Shown here in pieces: positions 3,567-58,356 of a stretch of DNA of 64,000 nucleotides (position 1 is the stretch's first letter; every line of letters begins with the position of its first letter). The notes beneath the pieces were generated by a model. That model was not told the origin of the DNA. It did not search any database and worked only from the letters and a program-made list of their open reading frames with translations. The stretch is from positions 1,574-65,573 of the forward strand of contig CALJUR010000108.1 of assembly GCA_937975765.1 (NCBI GenBank), given 5' to 3'. A program made the translations under genes and the position numbers. Origin of the DNA: an uncultured Myxococcales bacterium (GTDB taxonomy: Bacteria > Myxococcota_A > UBA9042 > DTJE01).

Positions 3567-4961
3567 TCACTGCTGGGCGCGGGAGCGCCATGCCTCCAGG
3601 GCGGCCCGGTTGGATGCGCCGTCGGGGGAACTCCACGGGTCGAAGCCCTGGTCGGCGACCCCCAGCGCCGCCATCAGGGCGTGCAGCGCCTCGTCCCGGA
3701 ACAGGGGCGGCGTCGCCGGGTCGGACATCAGGCCCAGCAGCCGGGCCGTCCCGTCGGCCCGCGCCAGTTCCAGCAGGCGCTCGGCCGCGACGAACCGGAC
3801 CTCGACGTCGGTGGCGGCGTCGGCCAGCCGCGCCAGGTCCCCGGCCGATTCCACCCCCCGCATCGCCCGGCGCTTCTCCACCAGGTCCAGGCCCGACAGG
3901 CGCTCGGTCAGCCCTGCCAGGCCGCCGGCATCCCCGGATACGCCGGCCTCCCCGGGTGCGCCCCCCTCGACCGGCGCGGCATGCCCGCGGGCATGGGCTT
4001 CCGAATCCGCGGCCCGTTCGTGCTCGGGCCCCTGGGCCAGGGCCGGGACGCCCGCCATGAAGCGGCCCGCCCCGGCGAATGCCAGGCCCAGGACGACCAC
4101 GACGGCGGCGCCCGCCACCACGTGGCCCAGCGCGCGCAGCCTTTCGGGGGCGCGGATCACGTACACCGCCAGCGCCGCCAGCAGCAGGGCCAGGCCGTAG
4201 AAGGCCACGACCGTGGGCCCGCTGGGCAGGTCGCCCCAGTAGCTGAACGCCAGCCCGATCACCGAGACGGCGGTCCCGACGACCCATCCGATGGCCAGTT
4301 GCAGCCCCATCCGGTCCGTCAGCATCACGCCCAGGATGGCCGGGACCACCAGGAACACGAAGACCAGCAGGACGCCGGCCGTCTGGACCGAGTGGGTGAT
4401 GACCAGGCCGAACAGCAGGTAGAACAGGAAGTCCCACCATCGCACCCGCAGGCCCTGGCGGCGCGCCTCCTCCGGGTCCTCGGAGATCAGGCGGAACGGC
4501 TTGCGGAACAGGAAGTGCAGGGCCCCCACCACGGCGTATGCGGCCGCGGCCTTCCAGACGTCCTCGGCGGTCACCCACAGCAGCGAGCCCGTCGAGATGT
4601 TCTGGATGTGCTCGGCTCCGTGCGGAGCCCCGTACACCGCCAGGATCCCCACCGACGCCGCCAGCGCGTACGACAGGCCGATGACGGCCTCCTGGGGCAC
4701 CCGGTCCTTGCGCAGGCGGGTCAGCGAGAAGACCGCCGCCCCCAGGAACGTGAAGGCCAGCGAGAACAGGTAGGCGCCCGTCGAGTGGGGGTTCAGGCCG
4801 AACAGGAACGCCACCGTGGTGCCCAACGCCGCCACCTGGGCCAGGGCGAGGTCCACGAAGATCACCCGCCGCCGGATCACGTGGAGTCCCAGGTACGAGT
4901 GGATGCCCACCAGGACCAGGCACTCCAGGAACGGCAGCGCCATCAGGCTGACGGCGTTCAC
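3567..4961 (-). CDS. metal ABC transporter permease (ZnuB/MntB/TroD, ABC-3 family) fused to a ~190-aa C-terminal soluble helical extension
   Basis: Polytopic N-terminal 270 aa typical of ABC-3 permeases (LALAQVAALGTTVAF..., GLSYALAASVGIL). GTG start overlaps the binding-protein stop (GTGA). An alternative ATG at 4943 is possible. Confidence 0.7.
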   Translation of the reverse strand: MNAVSLMALPFLECLVLVGIHSYLGLHVIRRRVIFVDLALAQVAALGTTVAFLFGLNPHSTGAYLFSLAFTFLGAAVFSLTRLRKDRVPQEAVIGLSYALAASVGILAVYGAPHGAEHIQNISTGSLLWVTAEDVWKAAAAYAVVGALHFLFRKPFRLISEDPEEARRQGLRVRWWDFLFYLLFGLVITHSVQTAGVLLVFVFLVVPAILGVMLTDRMGLQLAIGWVVGTAVSVIGLAFSYWGDLPSGPTVVAFYGLALLLAALAVYVIRAPERLRALGHVVAGAAVVVVLGLAFAGAGRFMAGVPALAQGPEHERAADSEAHARGHAAPVEGGAPGEAGVSGDAGGLAGLTERLSGLDLVEKRRAMRGVESAGDLARLADAATDVEVRFVAAERLLELARADGTARLLGLMSDPATPPLFRDEALHALMAALGVADQGFDPWSSPDGASNRAALEAWRSRAQQ

Positions 4962-8123: not shown

Positions 8124-11100
8124 TCACGTGGCCGTGGTGCCCGCAACGGCCAGCGTCCAGTTCTCGCAGGACGACCCGCTGACGAACCGCACCTCGATCT
8201 GGATCGTGAAACTGTCGTTGTCCAGCAGGCAGTCGTCGTTGCCGGTCACGGTGACCTGGTCCGTCGCGCCCTCGCCGTTGGTGGAGTGGGCCATCAGCGT
8301 GCCGCACGGCTGGTAGACGTACAGGTCGTAGTTGACGCCCGCCGGGACCGTCAGCGTGACCCGCGCGTGCAGGTCGGTGCAGCAGCCCGAGCACTCCTCG
8401 ATCGTGGCGCTGTACCAGTAGCCGCCGCGGCCGTTCCGGGTCGCCAGCGTGGACCAGGACGTGGACGGGCACAGGAAGCCGGACGTCATGTCGCCGCACT
8501 TCGAGCCCAGGTTCGTCGCGCTGCCGCACGCGTTGGCGTAGGTGGACAGGCTGGCCTCGCACCCGTTGACGGCGTTGCCGTCGCAGTTCGCCCAGCCGCT
8601 GTCGCACGCCCCCAGCACGCAGGTCCGCGTCGCGCAGGATTCGGCGGCGTGGTCGCGCGCGCACGAGGTGCTGCACGCGCCGCAATGCGCCAGCGTGTCC
8701 AGCGACTGCTCGCAGCCGTTGTTCACGTTGCCGTCGCAGGTGCCGTAGCCGGTGTTGCAGTTCGGGGTGCAGACGGACCCCACGCAGGCGTTCGTGCCGT
8801 TGACCTGCTGGCAGACCGTGCCGCACGCCCCGCAGTTGTCCGCATCGCTGGTCAGGTCGCGGCAGACGTTGCTGCAGCAGGCCCCGGTCGCGCACTCGGC
8901 GCCGCTGGTGCAGGCCTGCCCAGCGTCCTTGCGGCACGTGCCGCCGATGCAACTGTACCCGGTCTGGCAGTCCGACGGCTGGCTGCATGTCGTCCGGCAC
9001 AGGCCGGTCGCCGGGTTGCAGGCGTACCCGATGCATGCCTGCGATCCGCCGTCCGAGCAGGTGCCGGCGCCGTCGCAGGTGTCGGCCAGGTAGCTGGTGT
9101 TGCCCGTGCAGGAGGCCGCCTGGCAGGTGGTGCCCGCGTCGTACAGCGCGCACGACCGGGACCCGGAACACGCCCCGGTCCGGTCGCACGAGGACACCCC
9201 GTCCACCGGGCACTCGTTGTCCAGGTCCTGGCCCGCGGGCACCGGGTCGCACCAGCCGGCGCGTCCCGCCAGGTCGCAGGCCTCGCAGGTGCCGCCGCAG
9301 CGCGCCCGGCAGCAGACGCCGTCGGTGCAGAAGCCGGATGCGCACTCGGTGTCCGCCGAGCAGGCCACGCCGGCGGATCGCAGGCAGGCCGTCCCGACGC
9401 ACTCGTGATCCGCCGCGCAGTCCGCGTTGGCGCCGCAGGCGGCCAGGCAAAGGCCCGTGGCCGGCGAACAGACATACGGCGCGCAGGTCTTCGTTCCCGC
9501 GTCCAGGCACGACCCGCCACCGTCGCACAGGTCCGCCAGGATGGACGTCCCGGTGCCCAGGCAGGTCGCGGGGGCGCAGGTCGTGCCCACGGGGTACAGC
9601 GCGCAGGCGGACGCCCCCGAGCACATCCCGGTGCGGCCGCACGTCGAGGTCGGCTGGTCCGTGCACTCGTTGTCGTAGTCGCTGCCGGCCGGCACGGGCT
9701 CGCAGAAGCCCGCGGTGCCCGGCAGGTTGCAGCGCGCGCAGATCCCGTCGCACGCGGACTCGCAGCAGACGCCGTCGACGCAGAACCCGGTGGCGCACTC
9801 GGTTCCCGTCGAGCAGCCCTGGCCGGTCGACAGCAGGCAGGCACCGCCCACGCAGGTGCGGTTGGTGGTGCAGTCGCCGCTGCCGGTGCAGGTCGTGCGG
9901 CAGGCGCCCGTCGCCGCGTCGCACGTGTAGGGCTGGCAGTCCACGTTCGGCGAGTCCACGCACGTGCCGTTCCCGTCGCACGCGTCGGCCGGGTCCGACG
10001 ACACGCTGCTGGCGCAGACGGCCGCCGCGCAACCCGTGCCCTCCGGCAGCAGCGCGCAGGACCGCTGGCCCGAACACTCGCCCGTCCGGCCGCATGTCTT
10101 GATCGCGTCGGCGGGGCACTCGCCCGCGGGGTCCGTGCCCGCCGGCACCGGGTCGCAGAATCCCTCGCGACCCGCCTGGTTGCAGGACTCGCAGGTGCCG
10201 CTGCACCGCGTCCCGCAGCACGTCCCGTCCCAGCATTCGCCGCTGGCGCACTCGGTCCCCGAGGCGCAGGGCTGGCCCTCGTCCTTCTTGCAGGTGGTTC
10301 CGACGCACACGTACCCCGTCGTGCAGTCGTCGTCGATCGCACAGGTGGTGCGGCATGCCCCCGTCCCGGCGTCGCACCCGTACGACCCGCAGGGGACCGT
10401 CCGCGCGGCGAGGCAGGTCCCCAGCCCGTCGCACAGCGCGGCCAGGGCCATCGTCGCGTCGTCCACGCAGTACCCCGCGGCGCAGACCTTCCCGTCCGGG
10501 GCCAGCGCGCAGGACCGCAGGCCGCTGCACGCGCCCGTCGTGCCGCACGACAGGGCGCCGCTGTTCGCGCACTCCCCGTCCGGGTCCTCGCCGGACGGCA
10601 CCGCGGCGCAGCGCCCCTCCTGGCCGGCCAGCGCGCAGGACTCGCAGAGGCCGTGGCACCGTGCGTCGCAGCACACGCCGTCCGTGCAGAACCCGCGGGC
10701 GCACTCGGCGTCCGCGCCGCAGGGCTGGCCGTCGGCCTTCAGGCAGGCCGTGCCGGCGCATGCGTATCCCGCCTGGCAATCCGCGCTGGTGCCGCAGGTC
10801 GTCCGGCACCCCCCGGTCACCGGGTCGCAAAGGTACGGCAGGCACTGCACGATGCCCGCGTCGATGCACGCCCCGGCGCCGTCGCACGCGTCGACCGGAT
10901 ACGACGCGTACAGCGAGGCGCACGCCCGGACCGAGCACGGGGTGCCCTGCCCGAACAGCCGGCAGCCTCCCTGCCCGTCGCACGTGCCCTCCGTGCCGCA
11001 CGTCGAGGCCTCCCGGTTCGGGCACTCGGCGTCGGGGTCGGTCTGGTCCGGCATCCACGTGCACGTGCCCTCGCTGCCTCCCAGGTCGCACGCCTCGCAC

Positions 11101-21137: not shown

Positions 21138-21164
21138 TGTAGGGCGGGGGCCCTGTTTCCCGCC
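21138..21164. repeat. REP-like GC-rich palindromic element (TGTAGGGCGGGGGCCC...CCCGCC), variant copy
   Basis: Shares TGTAGGGCGGGGGCCC and the CCCGCC arm with the elements at 45205, 46625 and 58302. Confidence 0.4.
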
Positions 21165-21185
21165 AACGATCATCGCGTTTACGTG

Positions 21186-21222
21186 GAGTTGCATCATCAA
21201 TAATGGTGACTGTCCCTGAATT
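21186..21222. repeat. 35-bp inverted-repeat arm A (GAGTTGCATCATCAATAATGGTGACTGTCCCTGAATT) in a local AT-rich island
   Basis: Reverse complement matches 29265..29296 at about 30 of 35 positions. Its 3' 20 nt also match 29368..29386 in direct orientation. Confidence 0.55.
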
Positions 21223-21229
21223 GGGGGCG

Positions 21230-22459
21230 TCAGTCCAGGGAGCGGGGGCGGCCGGCGTCCTCCTCGTCGCGGGTGATGCAGCGGACGCCGCCCAGGTCCA
21301 TCGCGGCGACGCAGCGGTTGCAGTGGTCGCAGTCGGACCCGTCGGACTGGCCCCGGGCCATCCGGGACGGCAGGCCGGGGTCGCGGATCAGCGCCCGTCC
21401 CATCACCACGAACCCGAAGCCCGCCTCGCGGGCCCTCTCGATGTCCGCCCGGTCGCAGACGCCGCCGACCAGCGCCGCCGGAACCTTCAGCGCCTTCGCC
21501 ACCGGCGCGCCGTCGCGCAGGAAGAACGTGCGGTCGAACGGGTACTCGCGGACCACCAGCCGCCCGAAACAGGCCAGCCCCAGCCGGCGCAGCGGGTCCG
21601 CCTCGTTGCGCACCATGCGGCGCACCGGGACCTCGCCGCGCAGCATGTAGAACGGCGTGCGGCTGGTGAAGCCGCCGCTGGTCACGATCGCGTCCGCCCC
21701 GGCCGCCTCGAACCGCGTCGCGACCCCGACCGCCTCCGCCGGCGTCAGCCCGCCCCGGAAGCCGTCGTCCACGTTGGCCTTCACCAGCACGGCCATGCCC
21801 GGCCCCGCCGACTCGCGCACCCGCGTCACGACCTCGGCCGGCCAGCGGCACCGCGCGTCCAGGTCCCCGCCCAGCGCGTCGCGCCGCCGGTTCGTGTGCG
21901 GCGACAGGAACTGGCTCAGCAGGTACCCGTGCCCGGCGTGCACCTCGACCGCGTCGAAGCCCGCCTCGCGCGCCAGCCGCGTCGTCCGTACGAAGTCCCC
22001 CGCCACGCGTTCCAGGTCCCCCGCGCCCATCGCCCGCGGCCACGACAGCCGGAACAGGCAGAAGACCGCCGACGGCGCCACCGCCCGCCCCCCGATGACC
22101 CGCGGGTCCGAGAACCGCCCGCAGTGGCCGATCTGCAGGCTGGCCGCGCACCCCTCGGCATGCACCGCGTCGGTCAGCCGGCGCAGGTCCGGCACGATCT
22201 CGGGGCGCATCCACATCTCGGTGCCGTAGGAACGCCCGTCCGCGCTGACCGAGCAGTACGCGACCGTGGTCATCGCCGCGCCGCCCGCCGCCACCTCGCG
22301 GTGGTGTTCCCGCAGCGCCTCGGACGGCGCGCCGCCCGGGCACATCCCCTCGAAGCAGCCCGACCGCAGCACCCGGTTCCTCAGGCGCAGCGGCCCCAGC
22401 GCGGCCGGTTCGAACGCCCAGCCAGCCGCGGAGGTCCCGTCCGTCCCGCCCCCGCTCAT
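21230..22459 (-). CDS. NADH:flavin oxidoreductase, Old Yellow Enzyme family
   Basis: OYE signature HAGHGYLLSQFLSP. TIM-barrel motifs. ATG 22457-22459 overlaps the SDR gene's TGA. Confidence 0.8.
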   Translation of the reverse strand: MSGGGTDGTSAAGWAFEPAALGPLRLRNRVLRSGCFEGMCPGGAPSEALREHHREVAAGGAAMTTVAYCSVSADGRSYGTEMWMRPEIVPDLRRLTDAVHAEGCAASLQIGHCGRFSDPRVIGGRAVAPSAVFCLFRLSWPRAMGAGDLERVAGDFVRTTRLAREAGFDAVEVHAGHGYLLSQFLSPHTNRRRDALGGDLDARCRWPAEVVTRVRESAGPGMAVLVKANVDDGFRGGLTPAEAVGVATRFEAAGADAIVTSGGFTSRTPFYMLRGEVPVRRMVRNEADPLRRLGLACFGRLVVREYPFDRTFFLRDGAPVAKALKVPAALVGGVCDRADIERAREAGFGFVVMGRALIRDPGLPSRMARGQSDGSDCDHCNRCVAAMDLGGVRCITRDEEDAGRPRSLD

Positions 22460-23313
22460 CGCGCCGCCTCCCGGCCCATGCCCCCCCCGCCGTCCCGCCA
22501 GGCCCGCATCGGCGCCGCGAACAGCCAGCCCAGCACCCGCACGTACAGCCGGAACGACAGCCGCCGCAGGATCCACAGCGGCCACAGTTCGCCGGGCATC
22601 AGCACGTGCCGCCGGTTCCAGCGCACCGCCCGCACCACCTTGCGGGCCGCACGTTCGGGCGACGCCGAGTGGCGCGCCATCAGCCCCACCAGCCGGTCCC
22701 GCAGCCCCCCCGGCAGCGCCAGCCGCCCGTCGGACAGCACCCGCGTCCGCAGCGACCCCGGGCACACCACCGTCACCCCGACCCCGACCGGCGCGACCTC
22801 ACACGCCAGCGACTCGGACATCGCGACCACCGCGGCCTTCGTCGCGCAGTACGGCACCACGCCGGGCAGCGGCACCAGCCCCGCCATCGACGCGACGTTG
22901 ACGACGTGCCCGGACCGGCGTTCCACCATGCCGGGCAGGAAGGCCCGCACCCCGTGTACCGTCGCCCACCAGTTCACGTCCGTGATCCACCGCCAGTCGT
23001 CGAAGGGGATCGCCTCGGCCCGGCCCGCCACGCAGACCCCGGCGCTGTTGACCAGCACGTCCACGCGCCCCTCGTCGGCCAGGATGCGCCCGGCCAGCGC
23101 CTGGACCGCCTCCCCGTCCGCGCAGTCCGCGGCGTACCCCGCAATCGCCAGGCCCGCCGCGCGCCCCTCGGCCTCCAGGGCCCGCGCCCGGTCCACCTGC
23201 ACGTCCACGCCGTGCACCCGCGCCCCGGCCCGAGCGAATTCCAGCGCCAGGCAGCGGCCCAGCCCGGACCCCGCCCCCGTCACGACCACCACGCGCCCCT
23301 TCAGGTCCCTCAT
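22456..23313 (-). CDS. short-chain dehydrogenase/reductase (SDR)
   Basis: TGAGSGLG cofactor motif, NSAG, and YxxxK in VPYCATKAA. Confidence 0.8.
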   Translation of the reverse strand: MRDLKGRVVVVTGAGSGLGRCLALEFARAGARVHGVDVQVDRARALEAEGRAAGLAIAGYAADCADGEAVQALAGRILADEGRVDVLVNSAGVCVAGRAEAIPFDDWRWITDVNWWATVHGVRAFLPGMVERRSGHVVNVASMAGLVPLPGVVPYCATKAAVVAMSESLACEVAPVGVGVTVVCPGSLRTRVLSDGRLALPGGLRDRLVGLMARHSASPERAARKVVRAVRWNRRHVLMPGELWPLWILRRLSFRLYVRVLGWLFAAPMRAWRDGGGGMGREAAR

Positions 23314-23323
23314 CGGGTTCCCC

Positions 23324-24007
23324 TTACAGCCGGAACAGCAGGCCCAGGTTCAGCGCGAATTCGTGCGCCCAGAACTTCTGGGTGTCCTCGGCCGTCAGGA
23401 GCGGGAAGTCCGGATCCTTGTACTTGCCCTCGTGCTTCATCCAGTGGAAGGAGTAGCCGAACTCCAGGAAGATCCCGTACCGCTTCAGGAACGTCCACGA
23501 CGCGCCGGCCAGCACCCCGACGTTGGCACCTACCCCGGTGCGCCCCTCGGTGACGCCTCTCAGTTCCTCGACCACCGACACGGTCAGGCCCACCGGCACC
23601 TTGCCGTAGACCTCCAACCGGTCGTCCAGAAGCCGGTACTTGCCCTTGAACAGCGCGTCGATATCCACCAGCGTCCCGTGGTCCGCCATCGGCGTGCCCT
23701 TGGGCCAGGCCTCGTCCGCCTGCCACCACAGCGCCGCCACGCGCCCGCCCACGTCCAGGTACGGCAGCACCTCGTACAGCGCGTGCACGCCGAAGCCGCC
23801 CGTCGGGTCCAGTTCCGGGTCGTCCTCGGTATCGAAGAACTCGCTGGTGTAGGTCCCCTCGTCGCCGACGCCCAGCATGCCGGCGATGCCGATCTCGACC
23901 TTCGCGGGCGAGTCGGCCCGCGCGGGCAGGGCGGCCAGCAGCAGGGGCAGCAGCAGCGCCGGCAACGCGATCCGCGGCGCGAGGAAAAGGGGTTCATGAC
24001 GCATCAC
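23324..24007 (-). CDS. small outer-membrane beta-barrel protein (OmpW/OmpA-like)
   Basis: Signal peptide MMRHEPLFLAPRIALPALLLPLLLAALPARA. Alternating beta-strand pattern, C-terminal ...NLGLLFRL. Confidence 0.5.
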   Translation of the reverse strand: MMRHEPLFLAPRIALPALLLPLLLAALPARADSPAKVEIGIAGMLGVGDEGTYTSEFFDTEDDPELDPTGGFGVHALYEVLPYLDVGGRVAALWWQADEAWPKGTPMADHGTLVDIDALFKGKYRLLDDRLEVYGKVPVGLTVSVVEELRGVTEGRTGVGANVGVLAGASWTFLKRYGIFLEFGYSFHWMKHEGKYKDPDFPLLTAEDTQKFWAHEFALNLGLLFRL

Positions 24008-24140
24008 CAGGGCCTCCCGGGTCCAAGTTGGACGCGTATCCTAGCAGTCCGGATGCCCTCCCGGCAACGCATCGAGGTTGACTCAGCGCGTCATCCGGTT
24101 TACTGGAAACCCGGCCCCCCTCATGGAGGAAGTCACGCCC

Positions 24141-25916
24141 ATGACCGATCATCGCAACCCCCGCCGGGCCTTCGCGGCATGCGCCTTGCTTGCAGCAACC
24201 TGCCTGCTGGCGGCCGCGTGCTCCAGCGTCAGCCTCGAGGAATCCCCTCCCTACGACTACGCGACGAAGCCGATCGCGATCGCGAACCCGGACTGGGGCG
24301 TGATCCCGCTGCCGAACGACTTCCTGAACCCGGTGAAGCAGGCGTCCATCGTCCGCATCCCCGGCGTCGAGGCCCCAGCGGCGGCGCCGACCACGATGGC
24401 GATCCCGATCCTCGACAGGGCGGCGGCGGACAAGGCCCAGGACCTGGGCTACCCGATCGCCGAGGACGACCCGCTGTCGAAGGCCCTGCTGGCGGGCCAG
24501 AACCGGCTGGACGGCTTCATGGCCTCGTTCGCGCCGTCCATCCCGTTCTCGCGCAAGGTGGACATGGCATCGCTGGTGCCCTACCAGGGCGACAACGCGG
24601 CCGACGCCAACCTCTTCTTCCTGGACGTGACGGACCCGGCCCAGCCGGTCCCGATCGGCGCGGACGGCTATGCCCGCCTGTTCGACTGGCAGATGGCCGG
24701 GCAGATGCCCTACTCGCTCAGCCTGCGCCTGACCGATCCCGAGGCGTATCCCCCGACGAAGGACTTCACGCCCGGCCACTCGTACCTGGTCGTGGCGACC
24801 GGCTGGACCGACAAGGGCCTGAAGGCGCTGCCCGACGTCGAGGGCCAGCCCTCCGTGCCGTTCGTGTCCGACTCGCCGTTCCAGTTGTTCGCGGCGCCGG
24901 TCACGTTCCCCGACGACGCCGTGCCGGTCGGCGGGACCACCTACATCGGCCCCGACGGCGGCCCCCGCAGCGGCGTCGTGTCGGGCCTGGACGCCGCGCG
25001 CGAACTGGAGGGCGGCCGCCAGTTGACCGACTGGGCGCTGCAGGTCTGGGAGGCGCTGCCGGGCGTGAAGGACGCCTGGACCCGCGACCAGGTCGTGGTG
25101 GCGTACTCGTTCACGGTCGCCACCAACCCGATGCCGGACTACTTCGACCCGGTGGCCGCCTTCCTGGGCGGCAACGCCGTGCGGCCCCAGCCCTCCGACG
25201 CGGTGGACGGCAGCGGTGCGCTCCTGGCGGCCGACGCATCCTGCGACACGACGCTGGACTTCACGCTGGACAAGGAGATCGCGGTCGCGTCCGCGAACGG
25301 CGCGACGGTCCGGCTGTTCCGGTACGACGCGGCCGCGGCGAAGAAGTACACCCAGGTGCCCCTGGACGTCGTCGCGACGAACGCGCAGGGCACGGCGTCG
25401 GTCACCGCGACCCCGAAGGCGCCCCTGGCCGCCGACAGCCTGTACGTGGCGGCCATCACGAACGGCATCACGAACCCGGCCGGCACCCGCACCGCCGTGG
25501 ACCAGACCTATTTCGGCCTGACCCGCGCGGCGTACCTGCAGGCGGACGCGGTCACCGGCGCCGTGACCTTCCTGGACACGCCGCTGGTCGGGCAGGACAT
25601 CGAGTTCCCCGAGGATCCGACGAAGCTGACCTGGAAGTCGAAGTACCTGGACAGCCGGCTGGACACGCTGATCCTGAACGGGGTCACGGACACGGTGACG
25701 AAGGAAGACCGCGATGCGGCCGGCGCGACGCTGGTGCAGATCCTTTCCTACCTCGAACGGATGAGGGCGATCTACAAGCCGCACATCGACTGGCTGGTCC
25801 TGGGCGACGACGGCCGGCCCGGCCAGCCCGGCGAACCGGACGTCGACAACGTGGTCGCCCAGCGCGAGGACCTCGTGCTGGTCTGGACCTTCACCACCGG
25901 CGCCTGCGCGCAGTAG
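24141..25916 (+). CDS. lipoprotein of unknown function (591 aa)
   Basis: GGAGGAAG RBS. Lipobox in MTDHRNPRRAFAACALLAATCLLAAACSS. Confidence 0.55.
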   Translation: MTDHRNPRRAFAACALLAATCLLAAACSSVSLEESPPYDYATKPIAIANPDWGVIPLPNDFLNPVKQASIVRIPGVEAPAAAPTTMAIPILDRAAADKAQDLGYPIAEDDPLSKALLAGQNRLDGFMASFAPSIPFSRKVDMASLVPYQGDNAADANLFFLDVTDPAQPVPIGADGYARLFDWQMAGQMPYSLSLRLTDPEAYPPTKDFTPGHSYLVVATGWTDKGLKALPDVEGQPSVPFVSDSPFQLFAAPVTFPDDAVPVGGTTYIGPDGGPRSGVVSGLDAARELEGGRQLTDWALQVWEALPGVKDAWTRDQVVVAYSFTVATNPMPDYFDPVAAFLGGNAVRPQPSDAVDGSGALLAADASCDTTLDFTLDKEIAVASANGATVRLFRYDAAAAKKYTQVPLDVVATNAQGTASVTATPKAPLAADSLYVAAITNGITNPAGTRTAVDQTYFGLTRAAYLQADAVTGAVTFLDTPLVGQDIEFPEDPTKLTWKSKYLDSRLDTLILNGVTDTVTKEDRDAAGATLVQILSYLERMRAIYKPHIDWLVLGDDGRPGQPGEPDVDNVVAQREDLVLVWTFTTGACAQ

Positions 25917-25934
25917 GAAAGGAGGAACGTCGCC

Positions 25935-27233
25935 ATGCGGAAGCACGCAATCATCCTGGGCATCGCGGCGGCGGTCGGCCTCCTGCTGGAGGCGTCCGCG
26001 GCGCGGGCCAACGGGTTCTACATCCAGGAGATGTCCGCGGCGGGCATGGGCCAGGGCATGGCCATCGTGGCCGGCAACGGCCGCCCGACCGCCCAGTACC
26101 ACAACGCGTCCGCCCTGTCGTTCCTGAAGGGCGGCTACCTGGAGTTCAGCGGCACGACCTACCTGTTCACCGGCGGGTACGAGAACCCGCAGGGGCAGAA
26201 GACGTCGCCCACGACCGCCCCGATCTTCGTGCCGTCCTTCTTCGCGTCCTACAAGGTCAACGACTGGCTGGCGGTCGGCCTGTCCGAGTTCACCAACTTC
26301 GGCCTGAAGATCCGCTGGCCGAAGGACTGGGAAGGACGCACCATCGCCATCGAGTCCGGCATGGAAACCTTCACGATCAACCCGAACGTCAGTTTCGGGC
26401 CGTTCAAGGGCTTCGCGGTCGGCGTCGGCTTCAACGCCATGCACGGCTCGTTCCGGATCCTGCGCGCGCTGGCGCTGGGCCAGAACCCTACCGGCGAGGC
26501 GGACGTGCCGAACACCGTGGACATCCAGGGCGCGGCGTGGGGCTACGGGGTGAACGTCGGCCTGATGTACCAGCCGCTGGACTGGATGCGCATCGGCCTG
26601 GGCTACCGCTCGGGCATCAAGATCCAGGCCGACGAGGGCACGATGGACTTCGACGTGTCCTCGCCGTTCGCGTCGCGCTTCCCGGACCAGCGCTTCAAGG
26701 CGTCGATCCAGTTGCCGCACCTGGTGTTCGGCGGCATCCGGTTCTGGCCGAGGAAGAACCTGTCCCTGGAACTGGACGCCCAGTGGGTGCAGTGGTCGTC
26801 CTACGACAAGCTGCGCTTCGAACTTCAGAAGGGCCTGGTCGTCGGCCCGAACAAGAAGCAGATGGTGCTGGAGGAGGTCAAGGACTACCAGGACGCCGTG
26901 CAACTGCGCGTCGGCATGGACTGGGCGATCCTGGACGAGCACCTGTCCCTGCGCCTGGGCTTCCTGTGGGACCAGAACCCCGTGCCGGACAAGTCCGTGG
27001 ACCCGACGCTGCCGGATACCCAGCGCGTGATGCCGTGCATCAGCCTGGGCACCCAGTGGTCGGGCTTCTTCGTGGACGTCGCGTACATGCCGGTCATCGG
27101 CCTGGACCGCAAGGTCACGCTGAAGGACGGCGCCCCGATGGAAGGCACGTACACCAGTGTGACCCACGACTTCACGTTCACGGTCGGATACCATTGGGAC
27201 ACGGTCAAGTCGAAGCCGGTCGAGTCCCCGTAG
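25935..27233 (+). CDS. outer-membrane long-chain fatty acid / hydrophobic compound transporter, FadL/TodX/OmpP1 family
   Basis: Signal peptide followed by N-terminal hatch NGFYIQEMSAAGMGQGMAIVAG. AGGAAAGGAGGAA RBS. Confidence 0.8.
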   Translation: MRKHAIILGIAAAVGLLLEASAARANGFYIQEMSAAGMGQGMAIVAGNGRPTAQYHNASALSFLKGGYLEFSGTTYLFTGGYENPQGQKTSPTTAPIFVPSFFASYKVNDWLAVGLSEFTNFGLKIRWPKDWEGRTIAIESGMETFTINPNVSFGPFKGFAVGVGFNAMHGSFRILRALALGQNPTGEADVPNTVDIQGAAWGYGVNVGLMYQPLDWMRIGLGYRSGIKIQADEGTMDFDVSSPFASRFPDQRFKASIQLPHLVFGGIRFWPRKNLSLELDAQWVQWSSYDKLRFELQKGLVVGPNKKQMVLEEVKDYQDAVQLRVGMDWAILDEHLSLRLGFLWDQNPVPDKSVDPTLPDTQRVMPCISLGTQWSGFFVDVAYMPVIGLDRKVTLKDGAPMEGTYTSVTHDFTFTVGYHWDTVKSKPVESP

Positions 27234-27266
27234 CCTGGCCGGCGCCCGCGTCGAAAGGAGGAGAAC

Positions 27267-29261
27267 ATGCGCATCCAGAGACTGCGTCCGTTCCTGGCCC
27301 TGGCGGCCTTCGCGTGCCTGGCACTGCCGGCCTGCGGAGGCGACGACGACGACGGCAAGCCCGACGCCGCCGACGCGATCGGCGACGTCCCCGCCGAGGA
27401 GGCCCCGGAAGTCGTGTCGGAGACGGGAGCCGAGACCGTCACCGATGCCGTCACCGACACCCTCGCACCCATCGACTGGGACGCGTTCTTCGCGCCGCGC
27501 GGCTGGACCGACGACGGCAAGAAGCGGGTGGTGCTGCTGCACACGAACGACCTGCACTCGCACCTGGACGGCCTGGGCCCGCTGGCGGACTTCTCGCCGG
27601 ACGCGCTGGACTCCGACGGCACGCTGGGCGGCCTGGCGCGGCTGGCGGCGCTGGTCGAGAAGGAGCGCCGGGACCCGCGGCCCGGTGCGGCGGTACTGGC
27701 GGTGGACGGCGGCGACTTCACGTTCGGGTCGGCCTTCTCGGCGCTGTCGCGCAACCTGGGCATCGAACTGAAACTGATGGACGCGATGGGCTTCCTGGGC
27801 ACGACGCTGGGCAACCACGAGATGGACTGGACGCCCAACGGCACCGCGATGGTGGTCGACGCGGGCATCGGCACCGGCGACGGGCTGAAGGTGCTGGCGT
27901 CGAACCTGGTGATCCCGGACGACAAGGCGGCGGCGGACCTGAAGGCCCTGGTGGGCACGAAGATCCTGCCGTGGCGCGTGGTGACCCTCGACAACGGGCT
28001 GAAGGTGGGCCTGTTCGGGCTGCTGGGCACGGGGGCGTGGAAGCTGTCCCCGCACGCCGCGCCGGTCACGGTGCGCCCGCTGGCCGAGGCGGCGAACGAG
28101 GCGATCACGGCGCTGAAGGCCGAGGGCGTGGACCTGATCGTCGCGCTGTCGCACTCGGGCGTCACCGAGGGGGACGGCCCGACCGGCGAGGACGAGACGC
28201 TGGCCGGCGCGGTGGAGGGCATCGACGTCATCGTCAGCGGGCACACGCACACGCTGCTGCCGCAGCCGACCGTGGTCGGGAAGACGCTGATCGTGCAGGC
28301 GGGCTGCTACGGCCAGTACCTGGGCCGGCTGACGCTGGTGAAGGGCGCCGACGGGTTCGAACTGGAGTCCTGGGACACGCTGCCGATCGACGACGCGACG
28401 CCCGGCTTGCCGGACATCACGACGCTGATCGAGGCCGCCGAGGCCCACCTGGACACGACGATGTTCGCTGGGTCGGACTACGGGTACCAGACGCCGGTCG
28501 CGACGACGGGCTTCGACATGATGCCGCTGCAGTTCGCCGAGTCCAACCTGGGCGACTTCGTGGCGGACGCGGTGCGCTGGACGACGTCGAAGTACGACCC
28601 CGAGGGGCCGGTCGAGGTCGTCTTCGAGGCGAACGGCGTCATCCGGGACGGCATCCCGATGGGCCGCACCGGCGAGGTGCGCGTGGGCGACCTGGTGCGG
28701 GTGCTGCCGCTGGGCATCGGGCCGGACGAGGCGCTGGGCTACCCGATGCTGGCGTTCTACCTGTCCGCGGCGGAACTGGCCCAGGCGGCGGAGGTCATCG
28801 TGGGCCTGGCGCCGATCGTGGCCGACAGCTTCTGGCTGCAGGTGTCCGGCCTGAAGTTCGAGTTCGACCCGAACGGCGACCTGCTGTTCATGGTCAACAA
28901 CATCTGGCTGGGCGACGAGGTGGACGGGTACTCGGCCCAGCCGCTGGACTACTCGGCGGCCAACACGCGCCTGTACCGGGTGGCCGCGAACCTGTACATC
29001 GCCCAGATGCTGGGTGTGCTGGAGGACCAGACGGGCGGCATGGTCGCGATCGACATCAAGGACAAGGACGGCAACGTCATCGCGAACCCCGAGGACGCCA
29101 TCATCGACATCGACCCGGACACCGCCGGCGTGCAGGAACTGAAGCTGTGGCGGACCATGATCGAGTATGCCGCGTCGTTCCCCGTGGACTCCGCCACCGG
29201 CCTCCCGAAGATCCCCGACCGCTACGCCACCTCCCTCCAGCGCCTGAAGGCCGCGCCGTAA
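27267..29261 (+). CDS. bifunctional metallophosphatase / 5'-nucleotidase (UshA-like) lipoprotein
   Basis: Lipobox LALPAC. Metallophosphoesterase motifs LHTNDLHSHLDG, DGGDFTFGS, GNHEMD, SGHTH. AAAGGAGGAG RBS. Confidence 0.8.
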   Translation: MRIQRLRPFLALAAFACLALPACGGDDDDGKPDAADAIGDVPAEEAPEVVSETGAETVTDAVTDTLAPIDWDAFFAPRGWTDDGKKRVVLLHTNDLHSHLDGLGPLADFSPDALDSDGTLGGLARLAALVEKERRDPRPGAAVLAVDGGDFTFGSAFSALSRNLGIELKLMDAMGFLGTTLGNHEMDWTPNGTAMVVDAGIGTGDGLKVLASNLVIPDDKAAADLKALVGTKILPWRVVTLDNGLKVGLFGLLGTGAWKLSPHAAPVTVRPLAEAANEAITALKAEGVDLIVALSHSGVTEGDGPTGEDETLAGAVEGIDVIVSGHTHTLLPQPTVVGKTLIVQAGCYGQYLGRLTLVKGADGFELESWDTLPIDDATPGLPDITTLIEAAEAHLDTTMFAGSDYGYQTPVATTGFDMMPLQFAESNLGDFVADAVRWTTSKYDPEGPVEVVFEANGVIRDGIPMGRTGEVRVGDLVRVLPLGIGPDEALGYPMLAFYLSAAELAQAAEVIVGLAPIVADSFWLQVSGLKFEFDPNGDLLFMVNNIWLGDEVDGYSAQPLDYSAANTRLYRVAANLYIAQMLGVLEDQTGGMVAIDIKDKDGNVIANPEDAIIDIDPDTAGVQELKLWRTMIEYAASFPVDSATGLPKIPDRYATSLQRLKAAP

Positions 29262-29264
29262 ATA

Positions 29265-29386
29265 GGGGACAGTCACCATTATTCATTACGCAACTGCTCG
29301 ATTTCATGGAATATCCTGAAGCATTCATAATGAATCGTGGAAATACGAGGTGTTATCTCGCCAACCAGGGTGACTATCCCTGAATT
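29265..29386. repeat. MITE-like AT-rich element: 12-bp terminal inverted repeats GGGGACAGTCACC / GGTGACTATCCC enclosing ~95 nt of ~40% GC sequence with internal palindrome ATTCATAATGAAT
   Basis: Extreme GC drop in a 72% GC genome. Arm B1 (29265..29296) is the inverted partner of 21186..21222. Arm B2 (29368..29386) is a direct partial copy. Confidence 0.5.
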
Positions 29387-32300
29387 TCAGTCGGGCAGCG
29401 CCACGGCGCACGCCATCGGGTGGTGGTCGAAGTAGACGATGTCGGTGACGGCGGGATGGCCGTCGGTGACGCCGGCGGACCAGCACGACCCGGTCAGCAC
29501 GTCCGACAGCACGTGGTCGATGTTGAAGAAGCCGGCGTAGGTGGGCATGGCCTCGGGGCCGACCTCGTCCAGGAAGTGGAAGGCCTTGCCCGGCCCCGCG
29601 AAGTCGTTCAGCCGCGCCGCGCTGGGGTCCGCCTCGGCCATCCGCCCGGGGTCGGTGTTGAAGTCGCCCATCACCAGGTTCGTCGCGCCGTTCGCACCCG
29701 GCTGGCCGTCCCCCAGGCCCAGGTCCACGAAGACCCTTTCGAACTGCCGCACCCGGCACTGCTGGTCGGACGCCTCGATGCCCGACGAGCCGTGCACGTT
29801 GACCAGCGTCAGCGGGCCGGCCCCGTCCCACCGGTCGATCACGCCGCGGCCGATCCGCGTGCCGCTGCCGCAGCCCTCGATCGTCCCGCCTTCCATCCCC
29901 TCCAGGCACAGGTCCGAGTCGCAGCCCCGGAAGCGCCCGAACCGCCGGTGCACGCCCGCGCACTTGTCCGTCTTGGCCCGGTGGCACATCACCTGGTAGT
30001 CCCCGCCCAGGATCGTCTGCGCCACGATCGGCATGCCCGCCGCCCAGCCGTCGCAGACGAAGCCCGCCTGCGCCTCGACCGGGATCCCCGCGCACTCGTT
30101 CGGGTCGAAGATCTCCTGGAACGCCACCACGTCCGGGTCGGTCGCGGCCAGCCACGCCCGCGCCGCGTCGATGGACGGCACCCAGGACAGCCCGTTGCCG
30201 TACCACTGGTCCGTCCACTCGGCCTGCTGCGGCCCGTACCCCCCGGGGGGCGCCGACGGATCGACCGTGCCCGACGTGCCGGTGTTGAACGTGACCGCCG
30301 TCATCGTGCGCGCCGGCGCCGCCGTCGCCAGCCGCGCCCCGGTCGCGAAGTCCAGGTACAGCCGGTGCCCGTCCGCCTGCACGTCGTAGCGCGCCTCGTC
30401 GAACCGGGCAGCCACGAACGGGTTGTCGAAGCGCCCGTCCCAGCGCAGCGGGATCTCCTGCCCGGCCACCACCAGCGGGTCGTGCCACCCGAACGTCACC
30501 GTGCCGCGCCCGGGCGCCTCCCAGGTCACGCGGTACCCGTCGTCGAACCCGTCCGCGTCCACGTCGGGCACCGGTTCCGCCGCAATGGCCGACGCCGCCA
30601 GCGCCGTCGTGAAGGCCTCGAACGACCCCCACTCCCCCGCGTCGCCCACCTGCACCACCCAGGCGTTCCGCGCGCCGTCCGCCACCAGGTCGAACGGCAG
30701 CCCCGCGTTCTCGAAGACCTCGGGCTGGCCCGTCCGCCAGTGCGTCGGCTGGAAGGACCACAGCCCCACGTAGGCCGCGCCCTTGCGCCCGAACGTCCAC
30801 TTCCCGTCCTGCACCACCTGGTCGAAGTGCGCGTGCGGGAAGTACGCGTGCGTCTCGTCCCGGTAGTCGAACTGCGACAGGCCCAGCGGCTTCGCCTCGA
30901 ACTGCGGCGCGTACAGGATCACCGCCAGGTCCCGGTGCTGGCCGATCCGCGGCAGCGACGAGTCGCCCGTCCAGTAGCCCGCCCCGTGCTCGTCGCTCGA
31001 CTGCCAGTCCCACGTCGCGGGCACCGGCTCGCCCTCCTTCAGGGGCAGCGCGCCCGGATGCTGCGTGAAGACCACCGCCGTTTCGTCCAGCGTCGCCTGC
31101 CACGCGTGCACCTGCATCGCGTTGCTGCCCTTCCGGTAGTCCTGCACGCTGGACAGCATCGCGTGGGCCGTCCGGTACGTCTTCGTGTGGACCTCCTGCA
31201 GCAGGCCCGAGTTGAAGATGCGCCAGAACAGCTGGTACAGCGGGAAGATGTCCTGCATCAGCACGTCCACCGGCTGGGTCAGGTCCAGCAGGCCCGCCAC
31301 GATCGAGATGGACTCGAACTGGCCCTCCCACAGCCCGTACCGGGTCGCCACGTCCAGCGTCAGCGGCAGCAGCGGCCACGACGTGAACGCCCCCATCGAC
31401 CACCACAGCCCCAGGTTCGCCTCGTCGTAGGCCAGCCCGTACGGCGGCGGCGGCACCGGGTCGTCGTACGCCGCGGGCGGCTCCTCGGGCACCGGCAGGT
31501 TCATGCGCTCGCGGTCCTCCATCGGCCCGTCGTGCCGCGCCACGGCCCGGATCGCGTACGGCATCGCGTACTTCTCGGACCGCGCGAACAGCACCGTCGC
31601 CATCGGCGCGGCGTCCTTCCACGGCAGCACCGTGTCGTCGAAGAAGAACTTCGTCGCGTTGAACGTGTCCTCCTTCACCGCGGCCGGCTTGTCCTTGATG
31701 TACGACCGCCCGTGCGTGACGCCGAAGTTGCCGCGATGCACGTGCAGCGCGACGTCCAGCCAGAACAGGTCCAGCACCATCGCGGCCTTCTGCCGGACCT
31801 CGTCGTCGTCGGCCCACTCGACCAGCGTGATCAGCGGGTTCATGTCCCAGTTGTAGTAGACGTCCGAATGCCACTCGGTGAAGCCCCATCGGGCCCGTTC
31901 CTCCAGCCAGCGCAGGATCTCGACGCGCGCCCGGTCCCGGTGCCACGCGCCGGTCTGCCCGGTGACCTCGAAGGTGCGATCCGGAAATCGCTGGCCCATC
32001 AGGAACTCGACCGTCCGGAAGATCAGCTGGTGGTTCTCGGACCAGTACCACATGCCGTCCACGACGGGCTGGCCGCCGGACTCGCGCGCCGGCGTCGGGT
32101 CGGAGAACCAGTACTTGAAGGCCAGCAGGGCGTCCTCCAGGCGCGTCCGCAGCGCGGCGGGCAGCGCCGGGTGGCCGTCGGTCGCGTACAGCAGGTTGAC
32201 CAGCCGGCACGCGTCGAAGTCGCTGGTGTCCCGCAGCCGGTACATCTTGTCCAGCACGCCGTCGAAGGCGTCCAGGGGCACGACGTCGGCCGGCACCTCC

Positions 32301-45204: not shown

Positions 45205-45262
45205 TGTAGGGCGGGGGCCCCGTCCCCCGCCATCGCAGTCGTGGGGCCCCGTCCCCCGCCAT
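45205..45262. repeat. REP-like GC-rich palindromic element, tandem copy (TGTAGGGCGGGGGCCCCGTCCCCCGCCAT + GGGGCCCCGTCCCCCGCCAT)
   Basis: Near-identical to 58302..58356. Lies in a divergent intergenic region. Confidence 0.45.
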
Positions 45263-46406: not shown

Positions 46407-46624
46407 GAAGTCCGGCGGGGGACGGGGCCCCCGCCCTGCATTTCGGCCCCGGCCGACCCGGAGTCCGGTCGCGAACCGAGACCCGTCGTCCGCGTTCCGC
46501 CACCCATGACGATCGTTGATCGCTGCCTGGGTTTGCAGGGCGCGGCCCCCGGGCACGCAGGCGGAGTCGACGGGTTTCCGCAGGAAACTCTCGACGCAGC
46601 CGGAGTCGCCTCGGGCGCGCCTGA

Positions 46625-46652
46625 TGTAGGGCGGGGCCCCCGTGCCCCGCCT
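46625..46652. repeat. REP-like GC-rich palindromic element (TGTAGGGCGGGGCCCCCGTGCCCCGCC)
   Basis: Same family as the elements at 21138, 45205 and 58302. Confidence 0.4.
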
Positions 46653-58301: not shown

Positions 58302-58356
58302 TGTAGGGCGGGGGCCCCGCCCCCCGCCATCGTATTGCCGGGCCCCGCCCCCCGCC
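58302..58356. repeat. REP-like GC-rich palindromic element, tandem copy
   Basis: TGTAGGGCGGGGGCCCCGCCCCCGCCATCGTATTGCCGGGCCCCGCCCCCCGCC. About 90% identical to 45205..45262. Confidence 0.45.

Follow-up and report, generated by a model that had tools for sequence, protein, structure and literature searches.

RAYT-like genes (RAYT, tyrosine transposase associated with REPs; REP, repetitive extragenic palindrome) that have long terminal inverted repeats (TIRs) on either side, and not GTAG REPs, have been named TIRYTs, and the units that they form with their repeats TIRtrons (Di Nocera, De Gregorio and Rocco, 2013, BMC Genomics 14:522; PMC3733652). Many of these TIRs share the motif GGGGWSAS, and there are TIR families of moderate abundance, notably in Acidobacteria, whose members are found as singles, dimers or groups (PMC3733652). 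Most TIRYTs belong to TnpA-Y1 subclass 2.1, the group 1 of Bertels, which has the signature NHVH / WQ / Y[IV]ELNP, a median length of 238 aa and a C-terminal helix-turn-helix-like tail (Bac_DnaA_C / HTH_23 / HTH_28), and which is the largest RAYT group and has been described without REP-like partners (Quentin et al., 2018; PMC6006769, Table 1). The 16-mers that flank group 1 genes have ~12 occurrences per replicon (Bertels et al., 2017; PMC5581495), which fits a moderate copy number. Here, we describe three repeat units of ~43 nt, designated A, B and C, in a 64,000-nt stretch of DNA from an uncultured Myxococcales bacterium (GenBank assembly GCA_937975765.1, contig CALJUR010000108.1, positions 1,574 to 65,573 of the forward strand), which is called the window below. 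The units, one solo (A) and two joined in a dimer (B and C), belong to a family of repeats with the 12-nt core GGGACAGTCACC that flanks TIRYT genes in several phyla, and they are very probably non-autonomous TIR copies of a TIRYT/TIRtron system.

The units, and the island formed by two of them, have the following positions in the window:

21180-21222, plus strand: unit A, a solo TIR-type repeat with the sequence TACGTGGAGTTGCATCATCAATAATGGTGACTGTCCCTGAATT, which fits the sub-family register GTTG-N7-AATAATGGTGACTGTCCCTGAATT
29260-29302, minus strand: unit B, the left arm of the dimer; the plus strand reads AAATAGGGGACAGTCACCATTATTCATTACGCAACTGCTCGAT
29344-29386, plus strand: unit C, the right arm of the dimer, more diverged, with the core GGTGACTATCCC
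29260-29386, no strand assigned: the B/C dimer, an AT-rich hairpin island of 125 bp and 42% GC, with its GGGG ends outward, which resembles a REPIN or a miniature TIRtron that lacks the gene

A repeat search recovered A and B as inverted arms (21182-21216 and 29266-29300; 35 nt, 86% complementary, spacing 8049 nt) and C as a direct third copy (21180-21222 against 29344-29386; 43 nt, 74% match). An earlier note on this DNA, made from the sequence alone, had reported the inverted pair and a third direct copy; the sequences quoted there are found where it placed them, and the third copy extends to 43 nt. The agreement between the two arms, given in that note as about 30 of 32 positions, was measured as 27/32 between A and the reverse complement of B. 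Over the full 43-nt units, identity is 33/43 for A and B, 32/43 for A and C, and 25/43 for B and C. Patterns of 18 and 30 nt drawn from the repeat are confined to the unit sites in the 64 kb, and 100 shuffled sequences gave no match to them; the repeat is genuine and well beyond what chance would give. A profile built from the three units for nhmmer found no further copy in the window, and a search for a degenerate partner to the left of unit A found none. Both arms had also been placed in AT-rich sequence of about 40-50% GC, which is true of the right island, the most AT-rich island of the 72% GC window, and not of the left intergenic region, whose GC content is about 58-60% around a 37-mer of the arm that has 41%.

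The same core was found beside transposase genes in other genomes. A scan of 185,579 genomes, one per species, with the pattern AANNANGGTGACTRTCCCNNANTT returned 38 loci (numbered L below, together with the other loci compared), many of them (-,+) pairs 60-70 nt apart in Acidobacteriota and in a Woeseiaceae metagenome-assembled genome (MAG), where the complementarity extends into the flanks, as in CGAAATTGGGGACAGTCACCTTTTTTCGCC ... GGCGAAAAAAAGGTGACTGTCCCCAATTTCG. The window's own contig is not among these loci, although its units fit the pattern. At L022 (Gammaproteobacteria), L029 (Planctomycetota) and L033, the core GGGACAGTCACC flanks a Y1_Tnp gene in inverted orientation. The open reading frame (ORF) between these repeats encodes ~210-240 aa, matches Pfam Y1_Tnp and has "REP-associated tyrosine transposase" as its best NCBIfam model, with REP_Tyr_transpos scores of 78.9 bits (L022) and 65.5 bits (L029) that are both below the cut-off of 80. 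Copies of this repeat in inverted orientation around a RAYT-like Y1 gene were observed at seven loci (L022, L029, L033, L063, L077, L087 and L099). With the window's own lineage, the core GGGACAGTCACC is present in at least four phyla (Myxococcota-like, Acidobacteriota, Planctomycetota and Gammaproteobacteria), and repeats of this type are dispersed to a large number of unrelated loci, for the most part shortly after a stop codon.

A metagenome scan with AATAATGGTGACTGTCCC, the sequence common to A and B, returned 51 loci. High-GC contigs of ENA UOWO01, an activated-sludge assembly, and of JGI Ga0116157 have the exact unit register of the window, [AAWTYC]-N5-GTTG-N7-AATAATGGTGACTGTCCCTGAATT, including the GTTG block and the TGAATT end, and the 18-mer is present in nine Ga0116157 contigs and five UOWO01 contigs. 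This sub-type flanks the TIRYT gene at L087 and at L094-L097. L087 is a complete TIRtron of the AATAATGGTGACTGTCCC sub-type: its left TIR is identical to the first 21 nt of unit B (GGGGACAGTCACCATTATTCA), its right end reads ...GTTGAAGTCTCAATAATGGTGACTGTCCCTGAATT, and its TIRYT of 229 aa scores 81.1 bits against REP_Tyr_transpos (cut-off 80), with E. coli TnpA-REP (4ER8) as the sole PDB match.

The closest database relative of the L087 TIRYT is P0122, a protein of 229 aa with 85% identity to it, which is encoded in ERZ724101 (ENA) and SRR6007446 (Logan), the samples that hold the window's genes, and also on a 138-kb contig of MAG GCA_036844845.1. The P0122 gene lies between GGGGGACAGTCACCATTATT to its left and AATAATGGTGACTGTCCCCGAATT to its right, where a second copy of the core follows after another 20 nt, and the ends of this cognate TIRtron read GGGGGACAG and CTGTCCCC. 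The MAG contig (L094) carries, besides this TIRtron, a solo unit 8.4 kb away and between convergent genes. Its tetranucleotide correlation with the window is 0.94, compared with 0.92 between the two halves of the window and at most 0.90 for other high-GC loci. A second, unrelated repeat of the window, represented by the 15-mer GTAGGGCGGGGGCCC, was found outside the window only in L094 and L096 among the 98 loci compared. These lines of evidence are strong but indirect support for a TIRtron with the same repeat sub-type in the window's own genome. In L096, a solo unit and its flank appear twice, identical and 182 bp apart (9440-9512 and 9622-9694), near the end of the ENA contig; the NCBI contig L094 has a single copy, and the duplication is probably an assembly artefact at the repeat.

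An alignment of the TIRYTs, which range from 207 to 242 aa, contains the motifs NH(S/V/A/M/I)H, GHLWQ, RYVE(L/R)NPVRA and WSS, and a conserved C-terminal tail, R..T.TG(R/W)P ... LE ... GR. By these motifs, the proteins are assigned to TnpA-Y1 subclass 2.1 / RAYT group 1. TIRYT genes with no more than 41-58% identity to the cognate one have the 12-nt core beside them in several phyla. Among three TIRYT homologues chosen by protein similarity alone, L099 (58% identity) has the same core and the more distant L100 and L101 have other TIRs, so the core tracks part of the TIRYT family and not all of it. The TIRs of L100 are AGGGCCAGCCTCTCTTTTC (2905-2923 and 3825-3843), in a contig from sample ERZ724100, which also holds the cognate TIRtron; the Bryobacteraceae-type gene of L101 lies between a 33-nt, 97% complementary pair, AAATCTGGTGACAGGATACTCATTCCCCGATTT (2917-2949 and 3701-3733).

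The TIRtrons themselves show two further features. The right TIR contains the stop codon of the TIRYT gene (L094 6486-6568; L087 815-875): its TGA falls within the conserved GTTGA block, and the last codons (...ISTC-stop and ...ISAG-stop) lie where the repeat reads AATATCC-N-GTTG. Units dispersed elsewhere, such as A, thus seem to retain a relic of the 3' end of the gene and to derive from the right end of a TIRtron. The core is also often tandemly duplicated at TIRtron ends, 20-23 nt apart and on one or both sides of the gene (L094 6528/6548; L022 7198/7221 and 7956/7979; L033 332/355), an arrangement reminiscent of multiple transposase-binding sites.

The system described here resembles the known TIRtrons in that a RAYT-like Y1 gene is flanked at ~0-110 nt by long GGGGWSAS inverted repeats (here GGGGACAG, which in unit B fits the full motif, 8/8), and in that the repeats are scattered as singles, dimers or groups; such systems are known in Acidobacteria, Planctomycetes and Proteobacteria. 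It differs from them in its host, an uncultured high-GC Myxococcota-like MAG, and in that neither the core GGGACAGTCACC nor the ~45-nt register is given explicitly in those parts of the text and supplements of Di Nocera et al. that were consulted. The 12-mer GGGACAGTCACC appears in no bacterial paper of the literature searched, nor in the supplements of two key papers.

The earlier note had listed solo or paired ends of miniature inverted-repeat transposable elements (MITEs) among its possibilities, and this suggestion comes closest to what was found: A is a solo copy and B and C a dimer of a dispersed non-autonomous family that flanks a transposase gene elsewhere. As small, non-coding, hairpin-forming inserts beside genes that are bounded by TIRs, the units are also similar to bacterial MITEs such as NEMIS/Correia, RUP and ERIC, and the B/C island has the look of a 125-bp element with terminal inverted repeats. 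Those MITEs, however, are DDE-derived and have target-site duplications. A classical MITE with its origin in an insertion sequence (IS) of the DDE type, moved by a DDE transposase and leaving such duplications, is a most improbable source of these units: the sole gene found between the repeats encodes an HUH/Y1 enzyme, no direct repeat was seen at the island borders (CCGTAAATA|GGGG ... CCC|TGAATTTCAG), and solo units are common.

The mechanism that we favour takes the TIRtron as its unit, a single small TIRYT gene of the HUH/Y1 class (RAYT/TnpA-REP lineage) between inverted ~45-nt repeats with the core GGGACAGTCACC. HUH/Y1 enzymes such as those of IS608 and E. coli TnpA-REP provide the model, the latter cutting and re-joining single-stranded REPs. 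By analogy with TnpA-REP acting on REPs, the single-copy TIRYT would recognise the repeat as single-stranded DNA, cleave it through its tyrosine and re-join it, and would thereby spread non-autonomous copies in trans to new intergenic sites. Unit A would then be a solo copy and B and C a head-to-head dimer, the analogue of a REPIN. Copies may persist mainly just past the 3' ends of genes, either by tolerance there or by target preference, and the hairpin of a transcribed dimer may serve as a 3'-end RNA structure.

Several parallels with better-known systems can be drawn. REPIN-RAYT systems (RAYT groups 2 and 3), reportedly set out by Bertels and Rainey in 2011, and the REP/BIME and TnpA-REP system of E. 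coli likewise combine a single-copy HUH/Y1 enzyme between its own repeats with extragenic, non-autonomous copies, whose inverted doublets form hairpins and most of which lie downstream of genes. The protein here, in contrast, has the signature of subclass 2.1 / group 1 and not that of group 2 or 3. IS200/IS605 elements have the same catalytic family (Pfam Y1_Tnp), with a presumed single-strand mechanism in common, but their ends are sub-terminal hairpins where ours are long inverted repeats, their tyrosine motif is Y---Q where ours is Y---NP, and in them the IS gene itself multiplies.

A number of observations weigh against assigning the units to a TIRYT system. Two units depart from the 8-nt motif GGGGWSAS of described TIRtrons, A (AGGGACAG, 7/8) by one base and C (AGGGATAG, 6/8) by two, and A is nearer to B than B is to its own partner C. 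Compared with classical REPs and REPINs, the TIR units have no GTAG tag and single units are not stable palindromes; they fold weakly and inconsistently (-1 to -10 kcal/mol; alifold consensus ~0), some pairing N7 with GGTGA or GAATTC with TGAATT. On the protein side, the C-terminal helix-turn-helix of subclass 2.1 has no Pfam match at E <= 5, and the HuH motif of the cognate enzyme, N-H-S-H at residues 59-62 in P0122 and also in the L087 TIRYT, has serine in place of the usual hydrophobic residue, where relatives have V, A, M or I. The link between window and TIRtron as parts of a single genome is based on shared samples, composition and the second repeat, and the repeat copies seen in the window lineage are only those at 4 loci in ~80 kb. 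We know of no TIRYT with demonstrated transposition or cleavage activity.

The positions of the units relative to genes bear on what they may do. The outer end of unit A (CCCTGAATT) points right, toward the stop codon (21230-32) of an OYE-family gene, 7 nt away. The outermost A residues of unit B abut or overlap the TAA stop (29259-61) of a 5'-nucleotidase gene, and the TGAATT with which unit C ends immediately adjoins the stop (29387-89) of a minus-strand gene of 1092 aa. The B/C island, whose sequence does not differ between two independent assemblies (L001 and L002), thus occupies the entire gap between two convergent stop codons, and the adjacency to stop codons described in the earlier note is borne out at all three units. 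The 5'-nucleotidase is not truncated by unit B, since the protein and its orthologues end at the same alignment column. Of 21 sub-family units, 13 have the stop codon of an incoming gene at a distance of -2 to 23 nt (10/18 when only units outside the window are counted), a strong tendency of the units to lie just past stop codons.

This placement, together with folding, raises the possibility of a co-option, of the dimer and perhaps also of the solo unit, as an RNA element of 3' ends, in which a hairpin transcribed from either convergent gene would stop or stabilise transcripts or insulate the genes from each other. The B/C island, which fills the whole gap between the convergent stops, is predicted to fold into one long hairpin, better than shuffled sequences do, both as single-stranded DNA (-18.9 kcal/mol, z -3.1) and as RNA (-37.7 kcal/mol, z -3.4); units on other contigs are mostly within ~25 nt of an incoming stop; and REPs have been reported mainly downstream of coding regions, plausibly as RNA elements (PMC3733652). 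However, neither island contains a U-tract or an intrinsic-terminator pattern, neither has an Rfam match at the gathering threshold (at E <= 1 there is a lone 15.8-bit miRNA match, which we judged meaningless), and the position past stop codons could reflect merely where insertions are tolerated. No tRNA or tmRNA was found. Such co-option, which is compatible with an origin as a mobile repeat, seems to us rather unlikely on balance. In a broader form, subclass 2.1 / group 1 RAYTs, contrary to their description, could keep REPIN-like populations on the core GGGACAGTCACC whose repeats are placed or kept within ~25 nt of stops for their service to the host as 3'-end elements, which would make the system a domesticated one and not a decaying transposon; we put this forward as a speculative idea, with a minor share of our confidence.

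A regulatory role in DNA form is much less probable. The earlier note had pointed to a small dyad in the arm and considered paired operator sites; in its explicit form, the 13-bp near-palindrome GGGGAC-A-GTCACC would be the operator at which a dimeric transcription factor controls the flanking operons jointly. The core is indeed quasi-palindromic, and a gene start, the GTG (~21105) of a lipoprotein-like gene on the minus strand, has unit A ~75 nt upstream of it. Of the three copies, on the other hand, two are between convergent stops, with no promoter there to control, and the same core flanks transposase genes and follows the stops of unrelated genes in several phyla. The islands contain one weak promoter-like match, at chance level. 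We consider operator sites very unlikely.

The earlier note had further proposed that the inverted pair brackets a block of ~8.1 kb with outer-membrane and lipid-related operons. The gene map of this block, from gene calls based on GC content at third codon positions (GC3) and from Pfam matches, is as follows:

Stop at 21230, minus strand: Oxidored_FMN (OYE-family) gene, by Pfam
22456-23313, minus strand: SDR gene, by Pfam
23324-24007, minus strand: outer-membrane protein (OMP) beta-barrel gene, by Pfam
24078-25916, plus strand: gene call for a ~600-aa protein without Pfam match, termed "lipoprotein" in the earlier note
25935-27233, plus strand: FadL gene, by Pfam
27267-29261, plus strand: 5'-nucleotidase gene, by Pfam

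A reading of A and B as the two termini of a composite or invertible 8-kb segment, which moves or flips these genes together, has in its favour that the units are inverted, 27/32 identical and located at the outer stops of two divergent operons. Their orientation argues against it. The order is GGTGACTGTCCC ... 8 kb ... GGGACAGTCACC, so that the GGGG ends face into the block, opposite to all TIRtrons (L022, L029, L087, L094 and L099) and all short dimers including B/C, in which they point outward (5'-GGGGACAGTCACC ... GGTGACTGTCCCC-3'). This makes A and B edges of two separate insertions that face each other, and not the termini of one element. Moreover, no transposase or recombinase was found inside the block, as the earlier note had also observed; its GC3 is native (0.89-0.97); and the same unit occurs at many unrelated loci, the outcome that would mean, by that note's own criterion, a dispersed MITE not specifically related to the block.

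Relatives at 68-71% amino acid identity keep only the lipoprotein-FadL-5'-nucleotidase operon (3/6 genes), with entirely different neighbours. The comparison of orthologous loci suggested in the earlier note thus found that the block is not kept as a unit and that the repeat is absent there, in loci too distant for a presence/absence test. Between metagenome contigs and the window, the match is limited to the repeat itself, so these contigs contain no orthologous empty sites. A named homologue at 51% identity carries a Myxococcota label. Given the inward ends, the native composition and a block that is neither conserved as a unit nor equipped with a transposase, the bracketing is incidental: the 8-kb block is ordinary DNA between two independent insertions. 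A composite transposon or invertible segment would be a highly improbable account of the pair, and a false lead, that of a mobile or invertible outer-membrane/lipid island, is removed.

What the units add for an uncultured Myxococcota-like lineage of high GC is a documented TIRYT repeat family, together with its unit structure, dimer form and cognate gene. A concrete pair of substrate and enzyme, unit A (43 nt) and P0122 (229 aa), is thereby at hand for asking whether TIRYTs process their TIRs, an activity that is not known for group 1, the largest RAYT group.

Some smaller observations concern the flanks and the interior of the units. At L079 (1172-1215), the outer flank beside one unit is duplicated, CCCTGAATTTCAC TGAATTTCAGTC, and TGAATTTCAGTC also follows unit C (window 29378-29392). 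Instead of belonging to the element, TGAATT may be a motif for targeting or cleavage, and TGAATT / TGAATTTCA is a candidate target motif. Many units also have an inner GAATTC-like block. A small peptide was considered as well, as the units can be read as ...NNGDCP-stop; units A and C both finish in frame with ...G-D-(C/Y)-P-stop, and the B/C island contains a 25-codon ORF, MEYPEAFIMNRGNTRCYLANQGDYP-stop, at window 29306-29383 (plus strand). We rejected this candidate and judged the shared ending coincidental: there is no start in A and no stop in B, and the repeat is non-coding at many loci.

The three-gene operon of the block (window 24078-29261) is also found at L003 (6963-11986) and L004 (6971-11896), in otherwise unrelated neighbourhoods of distant relatives. 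Its order is a ~590-aa protein without Pfam domain, a FadL/TodX outer-membrane channel and a secreted 5'-nucleotidase/metallophosphatase, and the unannotated first gene may encode a partner of the FadL channel.

The second repeat of the window is a separate family of GTAG-tagged, GC-rich palindromes, (T)GTAGGGCGGGGGCCCCGTCCCCCGCC, which is unrelated to the TIR units. Its 15-mer GTAGGGCGGGGGCCC occurs five times in the window at <= 2 mismatches, compared with 1.1 expected. The copies are located as follows:

Window 21139-21165: GTAG palindrome
Window 45206-45232: GTAG palindrome
Window 46413-46439, minus strand: GTAG palindrome
Window 46626-46652: GTAG palindrome
Window 58303-58329: GTAG palindrome
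L094 65-91: GTAG palindrome
L094 14808-14834: GTAG palindrome

One degenerate GTAG copy is ~15 nt to the left of unit A, and the solo TIR unit of L094 is flanked by two copies, which suggests that both types of repeat accumulate in the same intergenic spots.

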